Shown in pieces: positions 16,701 to 49,234 of a DNA stretch of 64,000 bases. Below the pieces are notes generated by a model. It saw nothing but the letters and a program-made list of their open reading frames with translations, did no database searches and was not told the origin of the DNA. This DNA comes from a virus. The stretch is taken from positions 64,001 through 128,000 of the IMG/VR virus record IMGVR_UViG_3300015371_000001. One strand, 5' to 3'. Within the stretch, counting starts at the first letter, position 1, and the number at the start of each line of letters is the position of its first letter. Both the position numbers and the translations under genes were made by a program.

Positions 16701-18969
16701 CGAGCCTGCCGCTTGGTTCCGGAACGGTCAGGTAGGAGCCGGTGTCCCGATGGTGCGGGATACCTCCAGCCCGATCTCTGGTGGTGCCAGTGTCCGACTG
16801 GACCCGACGCCTACAGACGGCCAGACGATTGTCTCCTCGCCCATTGACGTGACACCTGACACTGCGTACCAGGTGTCCGTTCGGTTGAAGTCCAGCAACG
16901 ACCCGCCGACGACCACGCCACCATCGCCTCAGACGGTGGGCACGGTTGCTTCCGGTACGGCGGGTGTGACCCCAGGGCTCCCTTCAGGTACGTCGACCAA
17001 CGACATCCTCTTGCTCTACACGCAGTGCGCCGGAGGAGAGACGGTTGCGACACCGTCGGGTTACACGCTGGAGGCGTCCTCCTCGGTGGGCAGTGGTGCT
17101 ACCGGCACCAAGGCGCAGTTGTTCTGGAAGCGCGCAGGTGGCTCGGAGACGGCCCCAACGATTGCTGACCCAGGAGATCACGTCATCGCCATCATGCAGC
17201 GCGTGAGCGGCTGTGTGACGACAGGAAGCCCCTTCTCTGGCACTTCGGTGGCCAGCAATGAGGGCTCTGCCGATACCTCCGGCACCGTGACCGGCATGAC
17301 GACGTTGCACAACAACACGTTGGTCATGTCGTTCACTACTGGTCAGCGCACGGTGGCAGCCGACGGTACGACGGAGTATTCGGCGTACGCCAACTCGGAC
17401 CTCGCTTCCATCACGGAGTACATCGACCAAGTCCGGAACATCGGAATCGATGGCTCGATTGGTGTGGCTGGCGGTGTGGTCTCCGCTGCCGGAATGGTCG
17501 GCGACACGACGTACACGCAGGCTGGTGCGGCGCTCAAGGCGAGCATCATGTTCGCTCTGCAACCTGTTCCGATCATCGGTAGCGTCAACGTCAAGGTCGA
17601 AGTCCAGACGGCCCCGAACGAGACTGGTTTGGACACGGCACCGACGGTCCAGACGATCTACGCCTCGGGTGCAGGCACGACACCGATCACCGCAGAGATC
17701 GACGGTGGAGTATCGATCCCGAGTACGCATAAGTTCGCCAGGATCGCGCTCACTGGAAACCCGTTGGCCAGCCCGTACTCGGTCTGGTTTGACGATGTCG
17801 TCTTGGCCAAGATCGTCGGCACCGCGCAGATCGCTAACCTGGCTGTGATTGACGCCAAGATCCAGAACATGTCGGCCAGCAAGATCACGGTCGGCACGCT
17901 CCTGGCAGACATCACGTTGTCGGCCAGGATCAAGACAGCCGATGTAGGCCAGCGCTTCGAGGCCAACACCACGGGCGCGCAGGTCTACCGTTCCGATGGC
18001 ACCAAGGCGGCGGAGTTGTCGCCGTCGCAGTTGGCTACCTTCGCGATGGACGGCACGACAGCACTGTTCCAGGCGCTCTCGTCTACTGGCGCGATCATCC
18101 TTCGGTCGGGAACCAGCGGTCCTCGCATCGAGATCAACTCAACGGTGGACGCGGCGAGCTTCCGGCTCTACACCGGCTCAGCGGACCAGACGGCGACTCC
18201 GGCCAAGATCACCACGGACTTCAATGACGCTGCGAGTCCTCGTGAGGCCGAGCTAGACATCATCGGCCCGAACATCGGCCAGGACATCCCGCCGAAGATC
18301 GTGTTGCTCGGGAAGAAGGAGCTTGTCGGCGGTAACCCGAACAACAACACGGTTCAGGTCACTGGTGTCCGATCCTTCAAGGTGACGACGGCTAATCACG
18401 CGACTGATGCGATCTTGGTCAACGAGCAGACCGAGCGTGTGAACGTCGAGCCGCCGTGGGTCCTCCACACCCGCGACATTGCGTCGGACTCCTACATCGG
18501 TATGTCCGGTGATAGCTGGAATATGCGAGCTAGGAACCCACCGAGCGCGCCGGGTGCGTGGGGTCAGTGGTGGGGCACCAATGGCAACGTCGCGATGACG
18601 CTCGGCGGTGATGACTCGGTCCGTTCAACCAACGCCGCAGGTGGAACGTTCAAGCCGATGCAGGCCAGTGCGTACCAGACGCCTTCCGACATCAACATCA
18701 AGCGCAAGGTCAAGGACCTGCCTGCGGGGCAACTGGAGAAGCTGAAGAACCTCCGTACCATCAGCTTCGAATACAAGAACGACCCCGAGCAGGGCACCAA
18801 GCGTGGAGTCGTCGCGCAAGAGATCGCGGAGCACATCCCAGAGGCGCACTACGTCAACGACGAGGGCGCGCAAATGGTGGACATGATGGGTCTGACGACC
18901 ACCATCTTGGAAGCCATCAAGGAGTTGGCCGTCCGGATTGAGGTACTGGAGGAGAACAATGGAGCTTGA
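13720..18969 (+). CDS. large tail tip/fibre protein (Tal-like core, Fn3 repeats, CBM-like domain, C-terminal S74 intramolecular chaperone)
   Basis: 1749 aa; Fn3-like DTSTPSPP..ITVQW..YYVRLVAIDFMGN; SD..IK..V...RGVVAQE chaperone motif at the C-terminus. Confidence 0.85.
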   Translation: MAISLVGVTNAPGATAAVTTFATNVPAGVANGDLLLWTLVTNSINPATAQAGWSTWSTGTTTGLSQTTFWRYASSEPASYTATGLGSGRWGGAMVAYRGVDQTTPQDISFPASNQGTTATTYPQVSPITSGAWIVPIGSIVGPSAVVDVTWVAGNVDVLDTDAGSNTGSTNEFVCHGHELWTSGSFTPTGPTTGTTSTRTLGTTTVIRPSVGASNAVDHPTSATFGGPAEVVLIETIDIVTTAGATVSVGNPSREIVQVVSAGDTVVIDRPTAFTVGEGATETVSAPVIPTVSVIDTPNGVLIGGRSSGEAVDQGVTITPAPGTGTGLNVEVRRYLDDTNWVLIESSTTERKGYISVEASLLYDEPGFMNLVVDSQCAAEQGLADQVVIGIGLIYPQSASQEFARYTIESSQKEVLFDGRVAWTFSGRSFFARLEDAKVYPSAWPSPIPAGHGFVNATAGTQMRTLGARAQERGTIIDLDFETFTGVKTSDNQAWDKITSVEFGSGQSYLEALQDMITKGLCEAEMVGKSLRLYNADSTLSVHHSDIFFQSGDNLAQMDRETDSRDLGNVILIEGDQGAAQEYVDTGAVNNLGRRRERYVSHGGITDTGTLRVLAQAEADQYKQVLEEVNIEIAEFADYPQPFKDYKPGHWVWLQRDTGYQEVRVRQLSVSASGDKVSAAVTLNDKIAEQLLVLQRKIDAITGETQYGAISNPDKADTSTPSPPLGVTLTSSAYTLPSGTTNAQITVQWLAPVTNIDTTTLDDLGGFDIQYKLGTEAWTPMGEVDSATLSAYASGLPTGKQVQARVRAKDTSIHVSDWTFSNTTTTAGDGDPPDQPSTPVVSSAPLALRVDWDGLSATGGSMPNDVYQVWVCASKTSGFIPSAANRQQIMGKGQQTVYLIDLEYGATYYVRLVAIDFMGNTSPPSNEGSAVMPQIHTEDVADGLITELKLAQNAVTTDKIFPEAVTTEKLVVGAFAPTAIPNAGFEDAKSGNPTEPAAWFRNGQVGAGVPMVRDTSSPISGGASVRLDPTPTDGQTIVSSPIDVTPDTAYQVSVRLKSSNDPPTTTPPSPQTVGTVASGTAGVTPGLPSGTSTNDILLLYTQCAGGETVATPSGYTLEASSSVGSGATGTKAQLFWKRAGGSETAPTIADPGDHVIAIMQRVSGCVTTGSPFSGTSVASNEGSADTSGTVTGMTTLHNNTLVMSFTTGQRTVAADGTTEYSAYANSDLASITEYIDQVRNIGIDGSIGVAGGVVSAAGMVGDTTYTQAGAALKASIMFALQPVPIIGSVNVKVEVQTAPNETGLDTAPTVQTIYASGAGTTPITAEIDGGVSIPSTHKFARIALTGNPLASPYSVWFDDVVLAKIVGTAQIANLAVIDAKIQNMSASKITVGTLLADITLSARIKTADVGQRFEANTTGAQVYRSDGTKAAELSPSQLATFAMDGTTALFQALSSTGAIILRSGTSGPRIEINSTVDAASFRLYTGSADQTATPAKITTDFNDAASPREAELDIIGPNIGQDIPPKIVLLGKKELVGGNPNNNTVQVTGVRSFKVTTANHATDAILVNEQTERVNVEPPWVLHTRDIASDSYIGMSGDSWNMRARNPPSAPGAWGQWWGTNGNVAMTLGGDDSVRSTNAAGGTFKPMQASAYQTPSDINIKRKVKDLPAGQLEKLKNLRTISFEYKNDPEQGTKRGVVAQEIAEHIPEAHYVNDEGAQMVDMMGLTTTILEAIKELAVRIEVLEENNGA

Positions 18970-22080: not shown

Positions 22081-23736
22081 GTGAGTGTGGCACTCGACGT
22101 AGCCGCCCTCCAGAAGCTCATGGCCGATGACAAGGCCCGTACTGAGGCTGCCCAGAGGGTCAAGCAGGCTCATGACTTCGATCTGCCAGCACTTCAATCC
22201 TGGAACTACGAGCCGTGCCGTCGGCACAGGGGTGAACGGACGCCTGTCCCCCTGTGCCGTCAGTGTGGGATCGTGTTCCGGCGACACCAACGTGTCGGCA
22301 TCCCTTGGCTCTACCTGACCAAGATGGCGCTGCTGGCTGACTTCGTCGGCTCGGGTAAGACGGTTCACGCCGGGGGACTGTTCGCCTTGATGCAGGAGAC
22401 CGGCGAGTTCGAGCACCGACGGGGTGTGGTTGTGGTGGGTCGACCGGCAGCCATTCTTCAGTGGCAGTCGGAGTTGAACCGGATGGTGCCTCGGCTCGAC
22501 GTGGCGGCGGCTGTCGGCTCTCGGCAGCGCCGGATCGAAACGTACCTGCATCCGTGGGACGTAATGTTGATCGGTCCGCAGATGTTGATTAACGACTACG
22601 ACACTCTGACGAGGTTTCCGATCAGCACCTTGGTGCTGGACGACCTGGACCCGCTGCGGAACCGTGAGACCAAGACGGCCTACACGATCCGGCAGTTGAA
22701 CCGGGAGGTCATGCTGGACCGGCTCGTGGTGATGTCGGCGACGCCGCTCCAGAAGAAGCTCCACGAGCTTTACCACATCCTGGAGATCGTCGGCGGTGAC
22801 TCGGTGCTGGGAACGCCGAAGCAGTTCGATCTTCGGTACGTCCGGCGCGAGAAGGTGACGGTCTACAACGAGGAGTCAGGCCGCACCTCGCAGCAAGAGC
22901 AGTTCCAGGGCTACAAGCGGTTGCCGGAGTTCAAGCGCCGGATCGCTCCCTTCACGCTGCGGCGTACGCCGGACGATCTCGATGACGTGTCGATCCCGAG
23001 GATCAATCCGGTTGATCACTGGCTGACGCTTCACGAGGGACAGGCCGAGCGGTACGCCGAGCTTCAGAGCGGCATCGTCTCCTACATTCGATCTGACGAG
23101 TTCGGACGCGCTTCAGAGATCAAGCGACAGGCTGGAGCGATGAAGCGGCTCCATGCTGCGGCTGCCATCTGTGATGGGCTCGGGACGCTGGGTCTGCCCG
23201 ACGGGCCGGGGGCTTCGGTCAAACTCGACTGGTTGATTGATGAGTTGACCGGCGACCTGGCCGACGAGAAGGCAGTCACCTTCGCGCTCTACAAGCCGAC
23301 GATCCAGGTGATTCAAGCTCGACTTGAGGTTGAGGGTATCGGGTACGAGACGATCTGGGGTCAGGACCGCAATCCCGAGCACCGCAAGGCAGCGATTGAG
23401 CGGTTCTGGGATGACCCGAGTTGTCGGATCATGCTCGGGACCACGGCCATCGAGCAGTCTGTCAACCTTCAGTGCGCTCGTCACTTGGTCAATGTCGGCC
23501 AGATCATGAACCCGGCCAGGATGCTTCAGCTTGCTGGTCGGATCGCACGGGACGGCTCGGCGTACCAGCACGTCTGGGTCCACAACCTTCGCTGTGTCGG
23601 CACTCATGAGGAGCGCTGGCTGCGCAAGCTGGAGCGCGAGCAGGCGTTGGCCAACTACATTTGGGATGAGTCGAACGATCTGTTCAAGGCCATCTCTCCG
23701 CTAGAGCTACTACAAATGATTGGTGATGTGGGATGA
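22081..23736 (+). CDS. SNF2/SF2 helicase-like ATPase
   Basis: HQRVG, LADFVGSGKT, MSATPLQ, QSVNLQCA, QLAGRIAR motifs. Confidence 0.9.
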   Translation: MSVALDVAALQKLMADDKARTEAAQRVKQAHDFDLPALQSWNYEPCRRHRGERTPVPLCRQCGIVFRRHQRVGIPWLYLTKMALLADFVGSGKTVHAGGLFALMQETGEFEHRRGVVVVGRPAAILQWQSELNRMVPRLDVAAAVGSRQRRIETYLHPWDVMLIGPQMLINDYDTLTRFPISTLVLDDLDPLRNRETKTAYTIRQLNREVMLDRLVVMSATPLQKKLHELYHILEIVGGDSVLGTPKQFDLRYVRREKVTVYNEESGRTSQQEQFQGYKRLPEFKRRIAPFTLRRTPDDLDDVSIPRINPVDHWLTLHEGQAERYAELQSGIVSYIRSDEFGRASEIKRQAGAMKRLHAAAAICDGLGTLGLPDGPGASVKLDWLIDELTGDLADEKAVTFALYKPTIQVIQARLEVEGIGYETIWGQDRNPEHRKAAIERFWDDPSCRIMLGTTAIEQSVNLQCARHLVNVGQIMNPARMLQLAGRIARDGSAYQHVWVHNLRCVGTHEERWLRKLEREQALANYIWDESNDLFKAISPLELLQMIGDVG

Positions 23737-33128: not shown

Positions 33129-33202
33129 CGCTTGGAGGTGAACCGAGTGCTGAGATTGGACGAGTGGGTCTACCCTGCGTGGTGGGACCCCAAGGAGGCA
33201 GC

Positions 33203-33724
33203 ATGAATCCCTTCGGCCAAGAGCCGGAAGATGCCGAGCTAGGCAAGAACACTACGGTCATGGATCGGTCCGGTGGGCATTCGGGTGTGGTGGCCAAATA
33301 CTACGTGGCTCCGCCGCAAGTCGGCTCGGACGAGTACGACGTGCTGGACGCTGCGTGGCTAGACCACTTTCCCGGTCGGTCGAAGAAGCCGATCATCTCC
33401 GACTTGGTTGCCGACGTGATGGAGGCGTGCGCGGACTACATGACCGAGGTCGGTCACACCAAGTACACGCTCATCGACAACGACGGCTCGGTGTGTTTGA
33501 CCGGCGCGGTTGACGGTGTCACGAACGGTTGGCCGTCGTGGCAGCGGACGCTGTTCATGGATCACATGGAGGCCGTGGTTCGGCCTCCACAGAGGCCGAT
33601 GGCGCTGATCATGTGGAACGACTATCCCGAGACGACGCAGGAGCAGGTGGTCGAGGGCTTCCGGAAGGCTGCCAAGGTCGCTCGTGGAGCACCATTGGAG
33701 GATGCCTCCGATGGATCTCAATGA
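33203..33724 (+). CDS. DUF6197-like protein, paralog 6
   Basis: GSVCLTGA...WND.PETT.EQV...FRKAAK; GGAGGCAGC RBS. Confidence 0.75.
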   Translation: MNPFGQEPEDAELGKNTTVMDRSGGHSGVVAKYYVAPPQVGSDEYDVLDAAWLDHFPGRSKKPIISDLVADVMEACADYMTEVGHTKYTLIDNDGSVCLTGAVDGVTNGWPSWQRTLFMDHMEAVVRPPQRPMALIMWNDYPETTQEQVVEGFRKAAKVARGAPLEDASDGSQ

Positions 33725-34289: not shown

Positions 34290-34781
34290 ATGTGTGAATA
34301 CTGTGGTGACCCGACGGTGGCGGCTGATCTTCCGACGCCAGACATCCCCAAGCTCCGCAAGCTCTATGAGTGGGCGTGCGAGCAGGATGCGTTGCGGAAG
34401 AAGTCGTTTCGTGCAGGCGACTACGACTTGACCGAATGGGCTCAGGGGCAGTGGGCGCAGAAGATCGTGGGTGTAGAAGGCGTCTGCGGTACGGCGTACT
34501 GCATAGCCGGGAAGGCGGCGGCGGAGGCTGGCGCGACCTGGACCGAGCAGCAGTTGAGCGGTGAGCACGGTGGGTCGACCTGCACGCTGCCGAATGGCAG
34601 GGTCATGACCGTACGCATTTTTGCGCAGCAGGACTTGGGTCTGTCGCATAGCGAGGCCAGCCGGTTGTTCCACGGCACGAACGACATCGGCACGATCCAC
34701 CATGTCCTGAGGGACATCTGGGAGCGGGCTGGGGAGAAGTTCGACCTGACGCTTCCAGAGCATTTGACTGATTCGGACTGA
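34290..34781 (+). CDS. hypothetical phage protein (W.QG.W...CGTAYCIAG)
   Basis: GGAGGCAGC RBS; motif seen in actinophage accessory proteins. Confidence 0.7.
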   Translation: MCEYCGDPTVAADLPTPDIPKLRKLYEWACEQDALRKKSFRAGDYDLTEWAQGQWAQKIVGVEGVCGTAYCIAGKAAAEAGATWTEQQLSGEHGGSTCTLPNGRVMTVRIFAQQDLGLSHSEASRLFHGTNDIGTIHHVLRDIWERAGEKFDLTLPEHLTDSD

Positions 34782-34784
34782 ACG

Positions 34785-35189
34785 ATGGGACGCTTTGCCG
34801 ATACGTTGCGCAAGGAGATGGAGCCTGAAAATCCTCTGCGCAGCGGCGATACCCAGGTGGCGTTGATCCACTTCCTGGCGCGTCTGGAGGCGTTGGAGGC
34901 CGAGGAGCAGCAGGCCATCGAGCAGGCCACCGACAAGGCGCTGGAGCGGATGGGTCACCCACCGTACCGAGGGCCGTTGATCAGAGACGTACGTGCCGTT
35001 CTGAAGCGTCGTAGGGATCGCCGGGGGGAGATGGTCACCGAGCCTGAGATCGAGGCTCCAGCGCCCGTAGACGACGATCCTGAGGGTGGCTGGTTCTTCT
35101 CCGTGCAGGGGATGATCAGGTTCGAGGACGGAGAGGGGATCTTCGATGAACAGGAAGCCCCCGAATTGGAAAAAGATGCCACCGGATGA
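34785..35189 (+). CDS. hypothetical protein
   Basis: ORF in gene chain. Confidence 0.55.
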   Translation: MGRFADTLRKEMEPENPLRSGDTQVALIHFLARLEALEAEEQQAIEQATDKALERMGHPPYRGPLIRDVRAVLKRRRDRRGEMVTEPEIEAPAPVDDDPEGGWFFSVQGMIRFEDGEGIFDEQEAPELEKDATG

Positions 35190-35523
35190 GCAGTCGCAGT
35201 ACCTAGCCGATCTGTACTACGTCTCGGCTCAGATGAGGAGCGACCAACCTCACCCGTGGGCAGGACCGTTCTCAGCGACTCGGTTCGTGCAGGTGGAGTC
35301 CATCTTCGGGATCGCCGCCGCGTTGTTCGGCTTCTGGATCTGGAGTCAGCCCAGCGGTCAACTCCTTGCTGGCGTCTCGTGGGTGGTCGCTGTCGTTTGT
35401 CTGTGGGAGCCCGCGTGGCTGATCGCGTCGTACTTTGCGGCGATTGGCTACGCCAGGAAACACCCAGAGCGATATGAGGTTCGGGGGTCGAAGTTCCGAC
35501 TACGACTGGAGGCGATGAAGTGA
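35146..35523 (+). CDS. membrane protein
   Basis: 2 TM segments. Confidence 0.6.
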   Translation: MNRKPPNWKKMPPDEQSQYLADLYYVSAQMRSDQPHPWAGPFSATRFVQVESIFGIAAALFGFWIWSQPSGQLLAGVSWVVAVVCLWEPAWLIASYFAAIGYARKHPERYEVRGSKFRLRLEAMK

Positions 35524-35723
35524 CAGACGAGAACGATCTGCTAGATGCTGACGCTGCGTGGGAGCGTGCCAGTGCTCTGCTCCGGCAAGCCGACCGGAGC
35601 TTGCGGGGCGGAACCCCCGGCATCGCCGACACGCAGGCCAACCTGGCGATGGCCTACACCTTGTACGCCACCGGCAGGCAGGAAGGCAGCATCATCTTCG
35701 AACCTGCTGAAGAAAACAGGTAG
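35520..35723 (+). CDS. hypothetical protein
   Basis: GTGA coupling. Confidence 0.55.
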   Translation: MTDENDLLDADAAWERASALLRQADRSLRGGTPGIADTQANLAMAYTLYATGRQEGSIIFEPAEENR

Positions 35724-35772
35724 AACCGAGTACCAGGGTTCGAGAGGGTATCTATTCACAGGAGGCGCACCA

Positions 35773-36033
35773 GTGAGCGTTGACACCCAGACGGCCCCGG
35801 AAGGCAAGGCAACCTTGTCGATTCCGGACCCCACCGGGGACACCCGCATTCTGTGGGACCCCACCAACCGTGACGAGGTCGACCTGGCCCGAGCCGCTTT
35901 CGAGCAGGCGAAGGCAAAGGGAATGGCAGCGTTCGCAGTCAACCCGGCTGACGGCTCTCAGGGCGGTCAGATCCGTGAGTTCGACCCGGAGGCGAAGGCC
36001 ATCGTCATGGTGCGGCAGTTGCAGGGAGGCTAG
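35773..36033 (+). CDS. putative ubiquitin-like (beta-grasp) protein ending in Gly-Gly
   Basis: 86 aa; RBS AGGAGG; beta-beta-alpha-beta-beta-beta pattern; C-terminus IVMVRQLQGG*. Confidence 0.6.
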   Translation: MSVDTQTAPEGKATLSIPDPTGDTRILWDPTNRDEVDLARAAFEQAKAKGMAAFAVNPADGSQGGQIREFDPEAKAIVMVRQLQGG

Positions 36034-36038
36034 TCCCC

Positions 36039-37016
36039 TTGCCGGACCGCGATGAGGACCGAGGCCCGGATGTGTCCCTGAAAGCTGGGACCATCCGGGC
36101 TTCGGATTTATCAGACTTTGCAATCAGCCTGAAGCACGTACAACGAGGGATCGAGAACATGGCCATCACCATCCGGGACTTGGACGGCGCGTTCCGTACG
36201 GCGGCGGGGCAGATCACGACCAACACCACGACGGGGACCTACACGGGTCGGATCGTCAACAACACCAACGCGACGGTCACCTTCAACGATATGTATACCA
36301 ACACTTGGACCACTGGCTACAACGGCTACGACCGGATCACGTACGACGACTTCGGGTGGGACCAACGGTTGGAGGACTATCGACGTTGGTATACGACGCC
36401 CCCACGGGATACGCGGACGCCGGAGGAGATTCAGGAGGCTGCGGCGCGACTTCAGCGTGAGCTAGACGAGCGGCAGTACCGGCGTGAGGAGCAGAGCCGT
36501 CGTCGGCTGGAGCGAGCCCAGCGTGAGGAGGAGAACCGGCAGGCGGCGCACAACCGTGGCCTGGAGGTCCTGGAGTGGATCTTGACGCCCGAGGAGCGCG
36601 AGCAGTGGGCCAAGGACAGTCAGGTCGTGGTCAAGGGCTCTGAGGGCAACCTGTACCGGGTGAACACCTCTGGGGTCCACGGCAATCTCACCGAGGTCGA
36701 TGAGCACGGCTGCGAGTTGGCCCACATCTGCGTCGCGCCTCAGATGTACGTGGGTCGGAACGACCACGAGGACGACTATGGACGAGTAATGCCGTCGTCA
36801 GATGGCTGGGTGGGTCAGATCCTCATGATCAAGAACAGCGAGCGGGAGATTCAGGCCAGGGGTAACTACTCGCGTCGTAATCCGTGCCGTCGAGACCGGA
36901 ACCGGACCGCGCGGATCAACCGTGAGCCGATGCCTGGAGACCGGATGGAGCTTGCTCACGTCATCCGTGAACAGCGTGAGCGGATGGAGCACAACTGGAA
37001 CGTGAACGCCGCGTGA
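36039..37016 (+). CDS. coiled coil + conserved-Cys domain protein (possible E2-like partner A); start uncertain (alternative 36159)
   Basis: GS.G..YRV...N..E.D.HGCE....C.AP.MY...P...G..GQ.L shared with the next gene. Confidence 0.65.
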   Translation: MPDRDEDRGPDVSLKAGTIRASDLSDFAISLKHVQRGIENMAITIRDLDGAFRTAAGQITTNTTTGTYTGRIVNNTNATVTFNDMYTNTWTTGYNGYDRITYDDFGWDQRLEDYRRWYTTPPRDTRTPEEIQEAAARLQRELDERQYRREEQSRRRLERAQREEENRQAAHNRGLEVLEWILTPEEREQWAKDSQVVVKGSEGNLYRVNTSGVHGNLTEVDEHGCELAHICVAPQMYVGRNDHEDDYGRVMPSSDGWVGQILMIKNSEREIQARGNYSRRNPCRRDRNRTARINREPMPGDRMELAHVIREQRERMEHNWNVNAA

Positions 37017-37591
37017 GTGAGGATCTGTGGCGCAAGCTGCTCGTACAGGAGGGCATCGTGCAGGCTCCGATGGAAGCCGATGTGTTGTGGAAGATGTGGG
37101 TCGACCGGTACTTGAAGCCGTGGCAGCCGTCGGCTCGCGAACGTGAACGGCACGCCGCTCAGGCTGAGCGAACCCGGCAACGACTCCGGCAGGACTTGGC
37201 TGAGCAGCGTGGTCACGAGCGCAATGAGCGTGCGGCGTGGGAGGAGTTGGACTCGCATCTCACCAAGGATGAGGTCGCTCAGCGAAAGAAGGACGGTTAC
37301 GTCGACTTCATGGGCTCGAACGGTCGGCGGTACCGGGTCTATATGAGTGACGAGTTCGGGATCACCGACAACGTCTGGGAGATCGACCAGCATGGGTGCG
37401 AGATCCGGAACTACTGTGGAGCGCCGGAGATGTACGCCAACGACATGAGGTTCGCGCGTACGAAAGCCATTCCTGAGCCGTTGGGATACTTGGGACAGGT
37501 TTTGACGTTGAGGTTCAATGCCGAGGCATTTTTGGCAGCGGCGTACGCAGGCGAAGTATGGCAATGTGAGAGGCAGCAAGGCAGTGGCTAA
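37013..37591 (+). CDS. conserved-Cys domain protein (possible E2-like partner B), paralog of the previous gene
   Basis: Same motif: GSNGRRYRV...NVWEIDQHGCEIRNYCGAPEMY...GYLGQVL. Confidence 0.7.
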   Translation: MSEDLWRKLLVQEGIVQAPMEADVLWKMWVDRYLKPWQPSARERERHAAQAERTRQRLRQDLAEQRGHERNERAAWEELDSHLTKDEVAQRKKDGYVDFMGSNGRRYRVYMSDEFGITDNVWEIDQHGCEIRNYCGAPEMYANDMRFARTKAIPEPLGYLGQVLTLRFNAEAFLAAAYAGEVWQCERQQGSG

Positions 37592-37727
37592 CAGGTACCG
37601 GACCAGGCAGCGTCCGGCAAGACAGCGGGGTCATCTGGCGGACAAGCTCCACCACCCTGTTTCGATCCTCGTGATGGGCGTGGCGGTGTTCACCATCTTG
37701 GTGTGGCTTCCACGCTGCGCGGGATGA
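37584..37727 (+). CDS. small membrane protein
   Basis: GAGGCAGC RBS; one TM. Confidence 0.5.
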   Translation: MANRYRTRQRPARQRGHLADKLHHPVSILVMGVAVFTILVWLPRCAG

Positions 37728-38230
37728 CGAAGAAGGCTCCGCCGAATCCCGAGACGGTTCGTCTCATCGAGGCGACTCGTGAGGCTCACGAGGTTCTGGC
37801 TGATCTGAAGGCGGAGCGGAAGGCTATCGAGGACCTGGTTGAGAACGCTTCGGCGAAGCTCGCCGAGGAGCTTCAGGCGATGCATGACGGTTTCGTCGCG
37901 GCGCTGGTCGAGCAGGGCTTGGAGAACTACAGGTCCACGATTGAGCAGGCTCAAGAGGATGGCGTAAGGACGATCCTCGAAGGGTTTGATGAGATGGTCA
38001 GCAAGTTGTTGATCGCGACCAAGAAGGATCAGCGCCGAGGACTGCCGTCGATTCCTGATCTGGTAGAGCAGATGGCGTCCGGCAACCTGGATTTCGACTC
38101 TGAGGCGATGAAGCGCAAGGTCCAGGAGATTGAGGCGGAGATGGCCGCTGAACAGCGGTTGCGTGACCGGGAGGAGCGACGTGCCCGAGCTAAGGCAGAA
38201 GCTAAGTCCCGAAGAAAAGGTCGCCGGTAG
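37724..38230 (+). CDS. coiled-coil protein
   Basis: ATGA coupling; helical. Confidence 0.7.
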   Translation: MTKKAPPNPETVRLIEATREAHEVLADLKAERKAIEDLVENASAKLAEELQAMHDGFVAALVEQGLENYRSTIEQAQEDGVRTILEGFDEMVSKLLIATKKDQRRGLPSIPDLVEQMASGNLDFDSEAMKRKVQEIEAEMAAEQRLRDREERRARAKAEAKSRRKGRR

Positions 38231-38525
38231 GAAGTTCCGGGACGAGCAGCAGGCGTACCTCGACAGGCTGAATGAGACAGACCCGCCGACGTACGACGAA
38301 GGTGTGGACACGCTCCAGCGATACATCCGCCACGAGTGTGCCAAGCAGGGAGGCCGGAAGGCGTTGTCGATGCAGGAGGTCTACATCTTCAGCGATGACA
38401 AGAAGTTCGGCTTCATATTCAAGGAAGGCAAGTGCCGGTGCGGAGAGACAGCACGAACGGCAACAGGTCGGTTCGTGATCGCATCGGAGAGACCACCACT
38501 GGAAGGAAGGGTGGCACGTAGATGA
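38181..38525 (+). CDS. hypothetical protein (HEC...CRCG)
   Basis: RBS GGAGGAG before GTG 38181. Confidence 0.6.
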   Translation: MPELRQKLSPEEKVAGRKFRDEQQAYLDRLNETDPPTYDEGVDTLQRYIRHECAKQGGRKALSMQEVYIFSDDKKFGFIFKEGKCRCGETARTATGRFVIASERPPLEGRVARR

Positions 38526-38851
38526 CTGATCCGTGGGACATGCCAGAGATGAAGGAGTGGGCCGACCACATCCGGAAGGAGTTGGTCCCTAAGCTTGTCG
38601 GCTCGGCAGCGACGGTGTCGATTGTGCCGAAGGGTGAGACCGACGTGAAGTACGCGGTCGAGCTAGGCATGTCGATCATGTTGGAGAAGCCGCTAGTGCT
38701 GATGGTCTCTCCTGGCGCGCATGTGCCGGACAAGCTGGCGCAGATCGCCGACGCCATCATCGAGATCGACTTCGATGACGCTGACAGTCAGCACCAGGCA
38801 GGCGAACGGCTCCAAGAGTTCCTGATCTCGGTGGCGAACGATGGATCTTGA
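38522..38851 (+). CDS. nucleoside 2-deoxyribosyltransferase-like (Rossmannoid) small protein
   Basis: D.K.AVELG.SI.LEKPL.L resembles the E.G.A....KP signature. Confidence 0.45.
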   Translation: MTDPWDMPEMKEWADHIRKELVPKLVGSAATVSIVPKGETDVKYAVELGMSIMLEKPLVLMVSPGAHVPDKLAQIADAIIEIDFDDADSQHQAGERLQEFLISVANDGS

Positions 38852-39002
38852 CGATCCGTACATCGACCTCGGGTGGTGGGCGATGTCGGGTCGAAACCTC
38901 ATGGAGGCGCTTCAGCGGGCTCATAATGGCGAGGACCCTGACCTGATCTACGCCGAGCTATACGCCAACTCGCGGACGGAGATCCCTCCAGTCGCGGAGT
39001 AG
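38841..39002 (+). CDS. small hypothetical protein
   Basis: 53-aa ORF filling the gap (MDLDDPYIDLGWW...GEDPDLIYAELYANS). Confidence 0.55.
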   Translation: MDLDDPYIDLGWWAMSGRNLMEALQRAHNGEDPDLIYAELYANSRTEIPPVAE

Positions 39003-39251: not shown

Positions 39252-39897
39252 GGTCATCGGCTTGAGTGCGGTGGTGCTCGGCTTCATCGGCTTGATCATG
39301 GCTTGGATCTTCACCGATCACGGCAGTGCTGACGAGCAGACCAAAGATCCTCCCATCGTGGAGATCGCCGTGGGGCAACCGGCGTACCCAGGGGTCTCTG
39401 GGTTTGGTACCCGTACAGGTGGTGGTCGAGGAGGACCGGTCTGTCAGGTGACGGACGCCGATTCCTTCACGGAGTGCGTCGCGCAGGACGGTCCGCGCAT
39501 CGTCGTTTTTGAGAAGGGCGGCACCTACGTCTTGGATCAGCCGGTGGAGATCACCGAGCCGTACTTGACCATCGCCGGTCAGACGGCACCTGGAGGGATC
39601 AAGCTGACTCAGCCGCTCAAGGTCATGACGCATGACGTGGTGATCCGGTGGGTTGACTGCAACGTGTACCTGAGCCGATATGCAATGCTCCCCCGAGCCA
39701 ATGTGGTCCTGGACCGGATCGGACCGAGCGCCGTGCCGGTGATCCCAAAGCCGCTCATCGACAGCGATGATGACGGGATGCCTGACGACTTCGAGATCTG
39801 GCATCACAACGATCTCAACGCCGACGATGCGGCGTATGACGTGGACAAGAACGGCTATGCCGATATTGAGGACTGGTTCAACCAGTTGTTGTCGTGA
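39232..39897 (+). CDS. membrane-anchored, internally deleted PL1 pectate-lyase-like protein
   Basis: AYPG..GFG....GGRGG.V..VT...GPRIVVF..GG...TIAGQTAPGG, plus C-terminal DSD.DGMPD..E...D...NGY..IE.W.N. Confidence 0.7.
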   Translation: MKPTKREVIGLSAVVLGFIGLIMAWIFTDHGSADEQTKDPPIVEIAVGQPAYPGVSGFGTRTGGGRGGPVCQVTDADSFTECVAQDGPRIVVFEKGGTYVLDQPVEITEPYLTIAGQTAPGGIKLTQPLKVMTHDVVIRWVDCNVYLSRYAMLPRANVVLDRIGPSAVPVIPKPLIDSDDDGMPDDFEIWHHNDLNADDAAYDVDKNGYADIEDWFNQLLS

Positions 39898-40202
39898 ACC
39901 AACCGCGAGGCGTAGGCGACATCTTCGGGGAGGACATCCCTCCGCTGAGGGGTACGCCCGCGTGTGACGGTGTGGACCCCAAGCTGTTCGACTCGGTCCA
40001 TGAGGAGGACCACATCACGGTCGCCGTGGAGTACTGCGCTGGGTGTCCGGCGAAGCGGTCGTGTCTGGAGCGCCGGGAGTGGTTGGCGAATCTCCACCCG
40101 TATGCCAAGCCGGAGGGGACCTGGGGCGGCAGGCTCTACAACACCAAGGGCCGTCAGAAGCGAGTCAAGCCGAACAAGTACATCCGATACCGAGCGGCGT
40201 GA
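39894..40202 (+). CDS. whiB: WhiB-family Fe-S transcription factor
   Basis: AC..DP.LF...C..CP....C and GTWGG motif. Confidence 0.9.
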   Translation: MNQPRGVGDIFGEDIPPLRGTPACDGVDPKLFDSVHEEDHITVAVEYCAGCPAKRSCLERREWLANLHPYAKPEGTWGGRLYNTKGRQKRVKPNKYIRYRAA

Positions 40203-41037: not shown

Positions 41038-42510
41038 GTGGCTACGGCAATCGAGCATGGGCAGAAGGTCCTGGCCTCGATTGTCCCGAATGGTCGCGAT
41101 GAGCTTGACCTAGCGCTGCGGTACCTGCTGCCCGAGCACTTCCAGGACCCGACCCAGCGCAATCTGTTCCTGATGCTGGAGCGGTACGCCGACATCACGG
41201 GCGCGGTCATGACCCGTGACGCCTTCGATGATTTGATCTCGAAGGCTACGGCGGACGCAGGCAAGGCCGCGCTCTATCTGGAGACCTACGACCTGCTGGT
41301 TGCGATGCCGTCCTCTCCGGCTGAGTTCCGCTGGAGCATGAACGAGCTACGGGACCTGGCTGCTCAGCGAGAGACTGGCCGGGTCATCACCGAGGCTATG
41401 GGCATCCTCCAGACCGGGCTCGATGGGGAGCACGGGAAGCGTCTCAAAGGCCATGAGGATGCCCGTACGCATGTGCTGGCGGAGTTCGCCGAGATCGACC
41501 GCTCCCTGGCCATGCAAGAGGCCCCAGAGGGCGCTATCCGGCATCAGCAGGAGGAGATCCTTCAGGACTATGCCGACCGGAAGCGAGCCACCTCAGAGGG
41601 CCGGAACGTCGGCGTCGACTTCGGCTTGCGTGCGCTTGACTACAAGATCGGTGGGCTCCAGCCTGGCGACTTCGCCCTGATCGCCGGGTACTCCAGCGAC
41701 GGCAAGACATCTCTGGTGGTCCAGCTTGCTTGGGCAGCGGCGGTCCAGCAGGGCAAGAACGTGGTCATCGCCACCACGGAGACCACGCAGCCTCAGGTCC
41801 GGCGCAAGCTGGTCGCTCGGCACTCCACCCTGGAGCAATTCGGTCTGACCGACGGCCTCAACTCCAGGGCGCTGCGGGACGGCACGTTGGACGCCGATGA
41901 GGAGCGGGTCCTTCCGGAGGTGGTCACCGACCTCACCCGGAATCCGGCGTACGGGGAGGTCTACATCAAGCAGATCCCGAGGGGGCAGACCCTCGCGCAG
42001 TTGGAGTCGGCGCTGTATCGGATTCACCGGAGCTTCCCCATCGACGTGTGCGTGATGGACTACTTGGCTCTGCTGAAGGCCGAGCGCCGGAGGGAATCCA
42101 TCCGGGACGAGCTTGGCACGCTGATGAAGGAGTCCAAGCAGATCGCTACTACGTTCGATGATGGCCGTGGTCTCATCTTCGTGAGCCCCTGGCAGGTCAA
42201 CCGGACGGCGTACGACAACGCGCTGCGGCTGGGCTACTACACCACGCTGGCGCTGTCAGAGACGGCAGAGGCGACCAACTCCCCCGACATCATCGTCAGC
42301 GTACTCAACCAGATTGCCGATAGCGATGCACGGTTCGCCGAATTGAAGCTCCAGCTACTCAAGAACCGGGACGGCGAGACGGCGTCGAGTTTGATGATGG
42401 CCGTCGACTACGCCACCTGTAACTTTTCCGAGAAGGTGTCGAACACCGGCATTGAGGGCGTCCTGGACGGCACGGAGGACCAAGAGTTCGGCGGTCTCCT
42501 CGGCATGTGA
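41038..42510 (+). CDS. dnaB: DnaB-like replicative helicase
   Basis: LD..IGGLQPG, AGYSSDGKT, MDYL.LL, QVNR, KNRDG. Confidence 0.9.
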   Translation: MATAIEHGQKVLASIVPNGRDELDLALRYLLPEHFQDPTQRNLFLMLERYADITGAVMTRDAFDDLISKATADAGKAALYLETYDLLVAMPSSPAEFRWSMNELRDLAAQRETGRVITEAMGILQTGLDGEHGKRLKGHEDARTHVLAEFAEIDRSLAMQEAPEGAIRHQQEEILQDYADRKRATSEGRNVGVDFGLRALDYKIGGLQPGDFALIAGYSSDGKTSLVVQLAWAAAVQQGKNVVIATTETTQPQVRRKLVARHSTLEQFGLTDGLNSRALRDGTLDADEERVLPEVVTDLTRNPAYGEVYIKQIPRGQTLAQLESALYRIHRSFPIDVCVMDYLALLKAERRRESIRDELGTLMKESKQIATTFDDGRGLIFVSPWQVNRTAYDNALRLGYYTTLALSETAEATNSPDIIVSVLNQIADSDARFAELKLQLLKNRDGETASSLMMAVDYATCNFSEKVSNTGIEGVLDGTEDQEFGGLLGM

Positions 42511-44482: not shown

Positions 44483-47400
44483 ATGGCTCGTCTAGGACGT
44501 AGTCGACCGATCACCCCTCGTCTGATCGTTCCGAACAAGGCGCGACCGAACGGTTTTTGGTTCAGGGAGCGCTTCGAGGGTGGAGCGCCGTACGCCAACG
44601 AGACGATGATCTGGGGCGGCACTGCCAGCCACCCGTACACCACCACGGGCGGCACCGGAAGCACGTTCGATCTCAACCACACGGCTGATTTCGCGCTTGG
44701 TGACCGGTCCATCAAGATCACCACCAACGGCACCAATGCCAACACCTTCGTGCGGAAGCTCAACGGCACGGCGATGGACTTCACCAACCGGGTGCCGCGT
44801 ATCTGGATCAAGGTGGACACCAACGCCAACTTCCTGGACGGACAGTTGTGGTTGGGCTCCGGTGGTGCGTTGGCCAATGCCTACAAGTTCAAGTTCAGTC
44901 CGGATGACGCGGTTGTCCCGCAGTACTTCGGCGGTGAGTGGCAATCCATCACGTTTCCGTGGTCGTACGCGACAACGACAGGTACGCCGACGCGGAGCGC
45001 TTTGACAGACCTTAACTTCCAGATTTTCGACGGTAGCGCCGGAGTGTTGAACGTCTGGTGGGGTGGCATCTCCTCGATCCCCGATACCACGGTGCCGTAC
45101 CCCAACGGCGTGGTGAGTTTCACCTTCGATGACGGCTTCGCATCTACCACCAATGAGGCCGCGAGCTACATGGACCCCAAGCACATGCGGGGCACCTGTT
45201 TCATCATCGATGACGTGCTGGGGACCGGCGTCTACATGACGACTAGCCAGGTGCAGGCGCTTGAGAGTACCTACGGGTGGGAGATCGGTCTGCACTCACA
45301 TACGGCGGCGGATCACAATGCCGGTGGCGGTCTCACATCATTGACCGAAGCTCAGCTACGCGCCAACATGGCGGCGAACCGAGCGAACCTGCTCTCGCTG
45401 GGGATCAAAGATCCGGTGTCGATGGCGTGGCCACAGGGGCTCACGAATGTGGCGACCGGCAACGTCATGAAGGACATCGTCTCCGGCGTCGCACGGACGA
45501 CGAAAGGTGCGCACACCAACACCTTCCCGCCGTACGACCGTGTCAGAGCGTATTCGCGTGCTGTCGATGCCTCTGATTCGTCGTCCACGATCAACACGAT
45601 TATCGACAACGCAGTGACCAACAAGGATTGGTTGATTCTGCTGTTCCATGACATCGTGTCGTCGGGAGCGACAGGGAACCAATGCAACCGGTCGACTTTC
45701 CGCGCCATTGTGGACCACGCGGAGACGGCTGGGATCGCGGTATTGCCGGTCAAAGAGGTCTACGACGGTCGGCCTCCTGGCCGGGACACCATCACGATCA
45801 GTAACACTGATTTCAACACGGTCACACAGAGCGATACGGCGCATGGCTCGTTGACGATGGACCCGGAGAACCGGGTGCATGGTCGGTTCGGAGCCAACGT
45901 CAAGGCAGATGCCACCGGCTCTCAGATCACGATGGAGCGGACCTTCCCGACCGGGAGCATTTACGTTCGCTTCTATCTCACGATTGGTGATGACACCACG
46001 ACGGCCACCATCGTGAGATGTCGAGCTTCGCCGACGACCAACGTGTGTGGACTTCGCCGCCGTAGTGACGGGGTGGGTAACACCTCTATCGAGCTACGTA
46101 ACGGTACGACGAACACCGGTACGAAAACGACCGCTCTTGGGGTTGATACTCCAGCCCGGATTGAGTGGTTCGTTGATGCAGTGAACAACACGCAGACGCT
46201 CAGGCTCTACAAGGGTGCGAACGTCGAAGGTACGACGTTCGATGAGGAGATCACTGACGCGACGGCGACGAATGATCCGAACATCCTCCAGTTCGGTACG
46301 CCGAACACCGTTGAGACCACTGCTGACGATTCGTGGGATGACATCGCGCTCGACACAGCAGGGTGGATTGGTCCTCTTGCGTACGAGCTAACACCTCCGG
46401 TTGAGGGCGTTGCTCCTCTGACGGCGACTTCGAACCTGGTGACAGCAGCTTCGGTCACTGAGGTGGCGACGGCTACGTTGGCTGCGACCTCCAACTTGGT
46501 GACAGCCGGAACGGTGACGACTCCGTACCCGGCTGTGCTGGGAGCTAACGGTCAGTTTGATGAGGCTGAGACTCAAGCCTTCATGGGTGTCCTTCAGGAC
46601 TCCAATGGCAACCTCTACCGAGTCCTTGAATCCACGTTGGCGGATAACAACCAGCCCAGGATGATGAAGTCCACCGATGAGGGCTTGACCTGGACCGAGC
46701 AGGATGCTGCGAACCGGCCAGGTACGAGTGCTGGCGTGATCTGTGACCTGGAGTCCGGCCATGTGACGTGGGACCACGTCGACAAGACGATCACCTTTAC
46801 CTGGCAGCGGTCCGGCAATGTGGCGTACTCGAAGTTCAAGACTTCGGATGCCGCGAGCAACCCGGACACCTGGACCTCCAACGTCCGAGAGCTTCACACC
46901 ACGGTGACGGCAGCGGCTCCGCAGTACACGTCGCATACTTCACCGCAGGACCAGGCGTACGAGTGGTTGTTCTGGGGATCGAACACTCCCAAGCCGCAGT
47001 TCCGGAGCCGGACCAACTCCTCTACGTTGGGCTCGGTCACCGATGTCGATTCGACCGGGGTCAACCCGTCGGCGGTGCTTTTGCCGAACGAGCACGACAC
47101 CATGATCATCTACGAGAAGTCGAACCAGGTTCACTACAAGAAGCTGACCTCGTCCGGCACGCTCGACTCAAGTTCCACCCGTGTCGATGCCTCCGGGTTG
47201 CAGACTGGTAGCTCAGGTGCGGTTGTGGCGTACGCCGCTCCGGTGGCGTACCTCGGACCGAACGGCACCGATGTGGTGGTCTCGGTGCTGTTCATCGACG
47301 TGAACGGCGACTTGCGGTCGGTGGACATCGTCAATGGGACCCCCGGCTCTGAGTCGGTGGTGACGACGAACAACCCGGCAGCCGATGTGGGCACGACCAC

Positions 47401-49234
47401 GTCTCTGCAAGGTGTGATCGCACTCGCCGTTCACGGCACCACGCTCCATGCGGTGTGGGCAGACGGCACGAGTTACGACGTACTCCACGCCAGCAAGCCG
47501 TACGGCCAGTCGTGGAGCGGCACTGACACGCTCTACAACACAGCGGGCGGCGAGGACGTTGATTGGGTGTCGGCTGCGGTCGTGACGCACAGCGGTCAGA
47601 CGTACTTGGGCTACACCTACTACGTCGGGCCGTTCACCGAGGATGCTGGTACCACGTACTACAACCGGCTTTCGCTGGTCTCGAACATTGCCGGTTCCGC
47701 CACGCTGGCGGCGACTTCGAACCTGACGACGACTGCGTTGGTCACCGAGGTGGCCGCTGCCACGTTGGCCGCGACCAGCAACTTGGTGCCGACAGCGTTG
47801 GTCACCGAGCTTGCAGCGGCGACGCTGGCGTCCACATCGAACCTGGTCTCTGTCCCAAGCATCACGACAGTTGCGGTTGCTTCACTTCCGGCGACTTCGA
47901 ACCTGGTGACCGTACCGAGTGTGACGGTGTTCGTCATCGCCAACTTGGACTCGACGGCGGACCTGGTGACGACAGCGTTGGTCACCGAAATCGCGTCGGC
48001 GACGCTGGCGGCTACGTCGAACCTTTCGACAACGGCGGTCCTGACGGTCCCGGCCACGGCCACGTTGGCGGCGACCTCCAACTTGGTGACAACGGCGTTG
48101 GTCACCGAGGTGGCCACCGCCACGTTGGCAGCCACCTCGGACCTGGTCACGAGTGCCGCTGGAGCAGTATCCGGCACGGCGGATCTGGCAGCTACGTCGG
48201 ATTTGACTACGACTGGAACGGTGTCGCGCGAAGGCGCAGCGACGCTGGCAGCTACGTCTGATCTCACGACAGCGGCGGTCCTAACGGTCCCGGCCACGGC
48301 CACGCTGGCTGCGACTTCGGACCTTGTGACTGCTAGCATTGTCACAGCGGTGGCCTCGGTAACCATTCCAGCTACTTCGAACCTCTCGGTGACAGCGGTT
48401 CCTACGGTTCTGGCGTCGGCGACGTTGGCGGCGACCTCTGATTTGGTGACGGCAGCGACGCTCACCAGACTCGGTACGGCCACGCTGGCAGCCGTCTCAG
48501 ACCTGTTTGCAGAGGTGCAGGGTGAGGTCGGTGGCACAGCCACCTTGGCGGCTACCTCAGATCTCTCAGTGGTTGCAGAGCCGTTGGACATTCAGGCGAC
48601 GGTTGATCTCGATTCGGCTTCGGATCTGTCCACGGGCGGCGAGGTCATCAAGCTTGCCGATCTATTCATCTCGGCGCTATCGGACCTCACCATCACATCT
48701 GAGGTCGAAGTTTTTGCCGACATGGATCTGGCAGCTTCATCGGATCTGGTGACCGAAGCTGAGGTTGGAGGTCTGGCTGACGCTACAGCCGCACTGACGG
48801 CGACTTCGAACCTGGTGATTGGTGGAGTCGTCACCAAGCTCGGTGTCGTGTTCATGCAGGGCCAGCACCATCTGTCGGCGGTGCCACAGGTCGCCACGGT
48901 CCAAGCGGTGGCGTTTATCCCGGCAGTGTCCGACATGACCACGGTGGCATTCCGTGGTCAGTTCGCCACGGCGGCGATGCAGCAGACCTCGGACCTGACG
49001 ACGCACGCCTTCGAGCCGAAGTTTGGCATCGCCTCGATGGTGGCCATCTCGTACTTGCTCATCGGCGAACCCACTCTCGCTGTGGTGCGGATGCATCAGT
49101 ACTCCTGGCTCCACGCCACGGCGGAGGAGCCATTCGGCAACGTTCATCCGAGCGCTGTTCTAACCGCTAGAAGATGGAGGGCGGGTCTTGCTGTGTCGCA
49201 TGGACGAACCCGCTGGCGGGCCACACTCGACTAG
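44483..49234 (+). CDS. large fibre-like protein: CE4 polysaccharide deacetylase, Asp-box/propeller-like region, 20-aa repeat stalk
   Basis: SFTFDDG, EIGLHSHT..H, AWPQG, LLFHDI (NodB motifs); KSTDEGLTW Asp-box; ATLAATS(N/D)L repeats. Confidence 0.85.
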   Translation: MARLGRSRPITPRLIVPNKARPNGFWFRERFEGGAPYANETMIWGGTASHPYTTTGGTGSTFDLNHTADFALGDRSIKITTNGTNANTFVRKLNGTAMDFTNRVPRIWIKVDTNANFLDGQLWLGSGGALANAYKFKFSPDDAVVPQYFGGEWQSITFPWSYATTTGTPTRSALTDLNFQIFDGSAGVLNVWWGGISSIPDTTVPYPNGVVSFTFDDGFASTTNEAASYMDPKHMRGTCFIIDDVLGTGVYMTTSQVQALESTYGWEIGLHSHTAADHNAGGGLTSLTEAQLRANMAANRANLLSLGIKDPVSMAWPQGLTNVATGNVMKDIVSGVARTTKGAHTNTFPPYDRVRAYSRAVDASDSSSTINTIIDNAVTNKDWLILLFHDIVSSGATGNQCNRSTFRAIVDHAETAGIAVLPVKEVYDGRPPGRDTITISNTDFNTVTQSDTAHGSLTMDPENRVHGRFGANVKADATGSQITMERTFPTGSIYVRFYLTIGDDTTTATIVRCRASPTTNVCGLRRRSDGVGNTSIELRNGTTNTGTKTTALGVDTPARIEWFVDAVNNTQTLRLYKGANVEGTTFDEEITDATATNDPNILQFGTPNTVETTADDSWDDIALDTAGWIGPLAYELTPPVEGVAPLTATSNLVTAASVTEVATATLAATSNLVTAGTVTTPYPAVLGANGQFDEAETQAFMGVLQDSNGNLYRVLESTLADNNQPRMMKSTDEGLTWTEQDAANRPGTSAGVICDLESGHVTWDHVDKTITFTWQRSGNVAYSKFKTSDAASNPDTWTSNVRELHTTVTAAAPQYTSHTSPQDQAYEWLFWGSNTPKPQFRSRTNSSTLGSVTDVDSTGVNPSAVLLPNEHDTMIIYEKSNQVHYKKLTSSGTLDSSSTRVDASGLQTGSSGAVVAYAAPVAYLGPNGTDVVVSVLFIDVNGDLRSVDIVNGTPGSESVVTTNNPAADVGTTTSLQGVIALAVHGTTLHAVWADGTSYDVLHASKPYGQSWSGTDTLYNTAGGEDVDWVSAAVVTHSGQTYLGYTYYVGPFTEDAGTTYYNRLSLVSNIAGSATLAATSNLTTTALVTEVAAATLAATSNLVPTALVTELAAATLASTSNLVSVPSITTVAVASLPATSNLVTVPSVTVFVIANLDSTADLVTTALVTEIASATLAATSNLSTTAVLTVPATATLAATSNLVTTALVTEVATATLAATSDLVTSAAGAVSGTADLAATSDLTTTGTVSREGAATLAATSDLTTAAVLTVPATATLAATSDLVTASIVTAVASVTIPATSNLSVTAVPTVLASATLAATSDLVTAATLTRLGTATLAAVSDLFAEVQGEVGGTATLAATSDLSVVAEPLDIQATVDLDSASDLSTGGEVIKLADLFISALSDLTITSEVEVFADMDLAASSDLVTEAEVGGLADATAALTATSNLVIGGVVTKLGVVFMQGQHHLSAVPQVATVQAVAFIPAVSDMTTVAFRGQFATAAMQQTSDLTTHAFEPKFGIASMVAISYLLIGEPTLAVVRMHQYSWLHATAEEPFGNVHPSAVLTARRWRAGLAVSHGRTRWRATLD
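47698..49060 (+). repeat. 60-bp (20-aa) tandem coding repeat, >20 degenerate copies
   Basis: cacg(c/t)tggc.gc.ac.tc..ac(c/t)tg recurs at an exact 60-nt period from 47701 to 48541 and decays after; two more copies near 46410-46520. Confidence 0.9.

Follow-up and report, generated by a model that had tools for sequence, protein, structure and literature searches.

Can a phage carry a ubiquitin-like conjugation system reduced to a modifier and a single kind of carrier protein? The question is raised by three adjacent genes at positions 35773-37591 of a 64,000-nucleotide (nt) stretch of viral DNA (hereafter the window), which corresponds to bases 64001-128000 of IMG/VR virus record IMGVR_UViG_3300015371_000001, a sequence of 141,276 bp with an estimated completeness of 96%. 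The first gene encodes a small protein ending in a free Gly-Gly (GG), whilst the following two, here called CysA and CysB, encode partners that share a C-terminal domain (C-domain) with an invariant cysteine. We tentatively favour the reading that this module is a minimal pair of ubiquitin-like protein (Ubl) and E2-like (conjugating enzyme-like) carrier that depends on an E1 (activating enzyme) of the host, its covalent chemistry being hypothetical; a non-covalent complex of the UEV (ubiquitin E2 variant) or RWD type is nearly as likely. A modifier with an E2-like carrier fits best because the GG tail is unextended, the invariant Cys lies on a domain modelled as UBC-like, the two gene families are obligately syntenic and the genes are translationally coupled.

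All three genes lie on the plus strand. The small gene (35773-36033) begins at a GTG codon 7 nt downstream of a Shine-Dalgarno sequence read as AGGAGG (35760-35765, plus strand) and encodes 86 amino acids (aa), identical to the product proposed by the gene caller. As stated in the original prediction, the protein ends in AIVMVRQLQGG followed directly by the stop codon and, with GG as its last residues, it would be translated in mature form and need no processing. The two terminal Gly codons, GGA GGC (36025-36030, plus strand), also form part of the Shine-Dalgarno sequence GGGAGG of CysA (36039-37016, plus strand; 325 aa), which starts at TTG 9 nt further on; the gene caller instead uses an ATG at 36159, giving 285 aa. 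CysB (37013-37591, plus strand; 192 aa) has a start codon that overlaps the stop codon of CysA (GTGA), and this arrangement indicates translational coupling of the three genes. The two partners are paralogs related through a common domain, as had been claimed, with 34% identity over 125 aa (BLASTP, E 3e-17).

CysA has every part of the architecture found in its family. A Thr/Trp/Asn/Tyr-rich N-terminal region (36186-36413, plus strand; 47% T+W+N+Y), the counterpart of a repeated (V/I)W..W(N)TT motif in relatives, is followed by a charged helical segment (36414-36608, plus strand; 48% D/E/K/R), for which the AlphaFold2 (AF2) model shows helices at the N-terminal edge of the domain. The conserved C-domain (36537-36899, plus strand), UBC/RWD-like in the model, precedes a C-terminal Ala-Ala (37008-37013, plus strand; the protein ends NAA). 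CysB is the shorter paralog, with a charged helix and a C-domain (37214-37588, plus strand), and has neither the Thr/Trp repeats nor the AA end, terminating in SG. The charged segments noted earlier ahead of both Cys domains contain 45-48% D/E/K/R.

The feature most suggestive of a modifier is the tail of the small protein. A single-sequence search recovered six relatives, and a 16-member profile extended the family to 1017 proteins at E<=1e-3, nearly all of them metagenomic and none with a functional name. Conservation of GG in homologs, the lack of which was to count against the original prediction, proved exact in 120 of the 120 among the matches listed, with variable Gly codons, and the domain always occupies the extreme C-terminus. 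Small-family proteins also end in GG at every locus examined except L012. The second conserved element of the family is an N-terminal hairpin motif, D.TGDTR..WD, which the window protein shares.

Conservation of these Gly codons could alternatively be a by-product of the downstream gene, with GGNGG kept as a ribosome-binding site rather than for a function of the tail. The position of GGA GGC inside the GGGAGG of CysA fits this idea, as does the start of the partner 0-10 nt after the small-gene stop in most loci, yet we regard it as highly improbable. At ten gene ends (nine loci, L009 having two pairs) the third positions of the Gly codons take A, C, G and T, implying that the protein itself is under selection and not a ribosome-binding site alone, and the purine-rich core is often broken (GGC GGC, GGT GGC; other pairs include GGG GGT and GGC GGG). 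The tail persists where the next gene is at least 60 nt away or a different one (L002, L011, L013) and where another gene separates the pair (L002, L011, L013, L032), and not one of the listed homologs has a residue after GG.

The small gene and its partner travel together. They lie side by side, or with a single gene between them, in 13 small-gene-anchored loci and in 6 of 6 informative loci anchored on the partner; in the ten IMG/VR loci that encode the small protein, a CysA-type gene lies downstream in every case, overlapping or abutting in most, and in L002 and L011 the pair is split by one small inserted gene. In the opposite direction, we sampled contigs of proteins retrieved by the partner profile search, and all of L017, L026, L027, L028, L030, L031 and L032 have a GG-ended small gene upstream (L024 and L025 were too short to be informative). 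Neighbourhood conservation of the GG protein with the Cys domain, another proposed check, is therefore strict in both directions in all informative loci. The pair is also kept in distant GenBank relatives, namely Virus Rctr197k (genes 113 and 112) and a 595-kb uncultured phage (LR756511). L009 (6007-8271) carries two tandem pairs, of which the second partner (126 aa) is a bare C-domain, so that the minimal unit would be the GG protein plus the C-domain. No fusion of the small-protein domain with the partner domain occurred among 270 retrieved proteins, and all-against-all clustering of open reading frames (ORFs) from 14 neighbourhoods gave no third conserved gene; only these two families travel together.

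The genes inserted between the pair are small and unrelated (L002, 6319-6576; L011, approximately 6261-6554; L013, 4261-4557; L032, 562-846), and those of L002 and L011 are Cys/His-rich. In KX853510, the Rctr197k sequence, the region near Rctr197k_113 holds a CRISPR array and transposase genes; for several genes there, misc_feature is the sole annotation ('similar to hypothetical protein' or 'similar to transposase').

These neighbourhoods bear on a sulfur relay, in which the small protein would be a ThiS/MoaD/CysO-like carrier, thiocarboxylated by a host E1, and the partner Cys would handle persulfide for thio-modification of a nucleic acid or cofactor. A GG tail and a single invariant Cys fit such a role, the host would supply the ThiF/MoeB enzyme, and in L026 the pair adjoins QueC, a nucleobase-modification gene. 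That linkage was seen once only, however, and the 14 neighbourhoods hold no linked PP-loop ATPase, rhodanese or ThiF gene; the ThiS/MoaD models of Pfam are unmatched and the partner model is UBC/RWD-like rather than sulfurtransferase-like. We consider a sulfur relay improbable.

The partner family is much larger than that of the small protein. From 1.84 billion proteins the C-domain profile retrieved 7350 cluster representatives at E<=1e-3, of which 3287 also pass E<=1e-10; the counts that follow refer to the best 150 of the 7350. Profile columns N52, C67, P81 and Q89 are invariant (150/150), D84 is present in 149, and G37, P70, L91 and N105 are also nearly invariant, whilst in the most distant partners (L010, L012, L013) only the Cys and the P..D motif survive. 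The two distal Cys codons flagged from the sequence, at 36729-36731 (C231 of CysA, motif C-V-A-P) and 37415-37417 (C135 of CysB, motif C-G-A-P), both on the plus strand, encode this invariant cysteine. The wider shared motif, GS.G..YRV...N..E.D.HGCE....C.AP.MY...P...G..GQ.L, stands in part: the distal Cys is universal among the 150 representatives, but the proximal Cys of HGC is found in only about half of the family. It occurs together with two His and a tail Cys in approximately 53% of members, and otherwise all four are absent together (profile columns 50, 59, 61 and 112, equivalent to H214, H223, C225 and C283 of CysA). This joint presence or absence points to a metal or disulfide site that only part of the family may have and that is separate from the invariant Cys; CysA and CysB both belong to the His/Cys-bearing sub-family.

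Outside the C-domain, partners typically consist of N-terminal repeats, a charged helix and a variable tail. The N-terminal region holds two to four copies of (V/I)W..W(N)TT (15.5% Thr, 5.5% Trp and 1.1% Lys); it matches no known family and may serve to bind the target. Beyond a linker that varies in length, the chain ends in AA in 97 of the 150 representatives and in VA in 25, an ending that resembles an ssrA-like C-terminal degron or some other terminal recognition signal. Some partners have an extra N-terminal zinc finger before the Trp repeats (L002, 6586-7752; P0138, P0146, P0170), and that of L002 gave the sole Pfam match among 11 partners scanned (Phage_zn_bind_8, E 3e-4). In L024 (303-2786), a single partner chain bearing two C-domains (P0165, 516 aa) is followed immediately by an Anti-Pycsar Apyc1/metallo-beta-lactamase homolog, with a further partial partner copy upstream of P0165.

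What the invariant Cys might do depends on the fold that carries it. The C-domain of CysB, folded by AF2 with a 150-sequence alignment, gave a confident model with a predicted local distance difference test score (pLDDT) of 92.9 and a predicted template modelling score (pTM) of 0.85. It consists of two N-terminal helices, a four-strand meander (residues 29-33, 39-43, 54-57 and 63-68), a hairpin (74-85) and a long helix (88-109), followed by a short strand and helix. In shape, the model is nearest to the UBC superfold of E2, UEV and RWD domains. Its best structural neighbours were Ubc9, UBE2S, Ubc13, Tsg101, Vps23, the RWD domain of GCN2 and FANCL, with Ubc8 and UBE2J2 among further E2s, VPS37A among the UEVs, RWDD1, RWDD2, RNF25, Yih1 and Knl1 among the RWD proteins, and the Cap2 E2 region, CdnG-E2 and a Bub complex among bacterial structures; a second look at the top 1000 Foldseek matches again listed approximately 20 E2s. 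Strand 4 has the invariant Cys (model residue 68) at its C-terminal end, and the invariant Asn comes just before strand 3; in an antiparallel hairpin these two positions would be neighbours. The original proposal of E2-like partners is partly supported, by a confident model nearest to E2, UEV and RWD domains and by an invariant distal Cys, but the position of that Cys is non-canonical.

A papain-like or transpeptidase-like partner, also suggested at the outset, found no support and was rejected, the family having no invariant His and no such fold ranking high. Fold searches of BFVD returned only unannotated homologs of the Rctr197k type, and those of the ESM Atlas only 'hypothetical protein' clusters.

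The small protein is modelled less well. Its AF2 model, built on a 7-sequence alignment, is modest (pLDDT 73), with a strand at residues 24-27, a helix at 33-48 and strands at 51-56, 63-67 and 76-81. Of the beta-beta-alpha-beta-beta-beta order proposed from the sequence, one strand, the helix and the three strands after it are present in the model, but the proposed first strand falls within residues 1-19, where pLDDT is <50. The beta-grasp fold itself was not recovered: nothing in the PDB matched the model by Foldseek at E<=0.001, and ubiquitin, ThiS and MoaD were absent from three fold searches made with this weak model.

Several further results weigh against a Ubl and E2-like pair. The 16 small-family members queried match no Ubl family of Pfam, ThiS/MoaD included, at E<=1, the family has no match in NCBIfam, PADLOC or PHROGs, and a profile search of PDB sequences gave nothing relevant at E<=10. 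Amongst the partners, 11 scanned sequences match no E2 family of Pfam at E<=1, no E2 match came from PADLOC, a sequence profile search of the PDB gave none, and no PDB structure matched the partner model in Foldseek at E<=0.001. The partner domain has no HPN motif; in canonical E2s the catalytic Cys follows that motif and sits in the loop before helix 2, approximately 15 residues later than the strand-4 end occupied here. The C..P motif could be a structural turn like the YPxxxP of RWD domains. At L012 (3788-4219 of KX853510, Rctr197k_113), the small protein has a distant homolog with STIPG in place of GG at its end, and the partner of that homolog retains the invariant Cys. Lastly, we know of no Ubl pathway that works with an E2 yet without a dedicated E1.

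The nearest rival is a non-covalent complex, in which a catalytically inert UEV/RWD-type head at the end of a charged helix, as in kinetochore RWD proteins or Tsg101, would simply bind the small protein. The Cys and the GG tail would then serve docking or packing, and in early infection the complex would function as a scaffold or adaptor. Taken alone this is somewhat unlikely, although it comes close to the favoured reading. An invariant, unextended GG is characteristic of tails received by an adenylating active site and would be unusual for a plain interface; a Cys kept in all 150 representatives, and in relatives of approximately 25% identity, would likewise be unusual for mere packing.

If the pair is a conjugation module, its activating enzyme would come from elsewhere. 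The original observation that no E1/ThiF or JAB gene is visible in the window holds for the whole 141-kb, 96%-complete record, in which six-frame searches at E<=1 gave no match to ThiF (PF00899), with control genomes matching, and none to Prok-JAB (PF14464); the phage genome contains one small GG gene and two partner domains. Because the phage encodes no E1, we propose that a host enzyme of the ThiF/MoeB type would adenylate the Gly-Gly carboxylate. The activated tail would then pass as a thioester to the invariant Cys of the partner, which would act as a combined E2 and E3 (ligase): the Thr/Trp-rich WxxW repeats, in some relatives together with the zinc finger, would select the target, the charged helix would oligomerise the partner, and a protein of the host or the phage would receive the tag early in infection. 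A WhiB-family regulator encoded 2.3 kb downstream of the module (39894-40202; Pfam PF02467, 30.4 bits, above cut-off) suggests an actinobacterial host, since WhiB proteins point to such hosts, and actinobacteria possess MoeZ/ThiF-type enzymes that activate GG-ended carriers.

A wider form of the favoured reading, which we hold to be unlikely as a whole, would extend E1-less, two-gene tagging to thousands of uncultured soil and water phages. The GG modifier would be charged by a hijacked host ThiF/MoeB-type enzyme or by an ATP-independent route, and a single UBC-like E2/E3 hybrid would transfer it to host or phage proteins early in infection.

The same missing E1 is compatible with a counter-defence decoy, in which the pair would mimic the Ubl and E2 partners of Bil, Bub and Cap2 of CBASS (cyclic oligonucleotide-based anti-phage signalling systems) and jam or divert the host E1 without a target of its own. 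In a phage without an E1, any E1 contact must be with a host enzyme; the module occupies an early, non-structural region, the partner directly beside the Apyc1 homolog in L024 suggests an anti-defence neighbourhood, and the known bacterial Ubl pathways treated in 10.1101/2024.11.21.623953 are anti-phage systems. Such a decoy is nevertheless a rather unlikely explanation. The partner family is very widespread (7350 representatives) and occurs in phages whose GC content differs greatly (L010, L013), in contrast to the patchy distribution of Bil, Bub and type II CBASS among hosts; searches of PADLOC and Pfam gave no sequence similarity to Bil, Cap2 or Bub components, and the Thr/Trp repeats and AA tail would be left unexplained.

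How, then, would a Ubl and E2-like pair compare with known systems? The Bil, Bub and CBASS systems described in 10.1101/2024.11.21.623953 are host-encoded and always include an E1, usually with a JAB or serine peptidase. Like Bil (BilABCD), Bub and CBASS Cap2-Cap3, the module has a small protein or tail with a C-terminal Gly, which here would be handled by a domain predicted to be UBC-like, in a context of phage-host conflict. Unlike them, it is encoded by the phage, with no E1 or JAB gene in that phage and no third conserved gene in the 14 neighbourhoods; it has no sequence match to their models, and its Cys position and motifs differ from those of canonical E2s. In its predicted succession of elements (helix, four-strand meander, loop, long helix), the partner matches eukaryotic E2, UEV and RWD domains.

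TtuB of Thermus and the archaeal SAMP proteins are conjugated independently of a canonical set of E2 and E3, with a ThiF/MoeB-type enzyme encoded elsewhere in the genome. Together with ThiS, MoaD and CysO they resemble the small protein in size (approximately 70-90 aa), in the free GG tail and in an activating enzyme that is not linked. Unlike it, they do without an obligatory UBC-like Cys partner; searches gave neither a sequence nor a fold match to them, and the D.TGDTR..WD hairpin motif is specific to the family described here. Pup of Actinobacteria, a disordered protein with GGQ or GGE at its end, is ligated by PafA through a Glu side chain. It is likewise a small tag with a glycine-rich C-terminus, from what is likely the host phylum of this phage, whereas the protein described here has a predicted fold and GG as its last residues.

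To date, descriptions of bacterial ubiquitin-like conjugation (Bil, Bub, CBASS Cap2) concern host immunity and in every case include a dedicated E1; our literature search turned up no publication on a comparable phage-encoded Ubl or E2. If the wider reading is true, the module would be the smallest ubiquitin-like conjugation system known and the first to serve phage offence. Either phages borrow activating enzymes of the host to tag proteins, or a GG tail works with the UBC/RWD fold in a non-canonical manner. Both outcomes would define two large unannotated families, with >1000 small proteins and >7000 partner cluster representatives, and would provide a compact, tractable system made of two small genes.

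Within the GenBank phage collection, the small protein matches LR756511 and KX853510 only, tblastn with CysB and the L007 partner gave no match, and megablast with positions 35000-39000 of the window gave none. The motif TGDTR[IVL][ML]WD has no relative in 185,579 species genomes, and the partner alignment is too variable for a pattern scan. PHROGs and NCBIfam gave nothing meaningful for the partner family.

Replication and regulatory genes surround the module: genes for an SNF2 helicase (22081-23736) and for a DnaB helicase (41038-42510) lie on either side, and the same-strand block of small genes to which it belongs also encodes two XRE-type helix-turn-helix proteins and the WhiB-family regulator. 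The interval 34700-38400 showed neither a sigma-70-like promoter nor an intrinsic terminator. The GC content of the window is approximately 61%, and the stretch is contained in rhizosphere metagenome runs, with no RNA run among the runs listed. Other genes nearby include those for a DUF6197 protein (33164-33724) and for a 109-aa protein (38522-38851) that matches phrog_18163 and has a weak likeness to nucleoside 2-deoxyribosyltransferase. The window also encodes very large tail-type proteins, one of them the 1749-aa product. Of three giant ORFs, that at 3087-10943 (2618 aa) has no Pfam match, whilst those at 13720-18969 (1749 aa) and 44483-49234 (1583 aa) carry a Peptidase_S74 intramolecular chaperone domain and a polysaccharide deacetylase domain, respectively.

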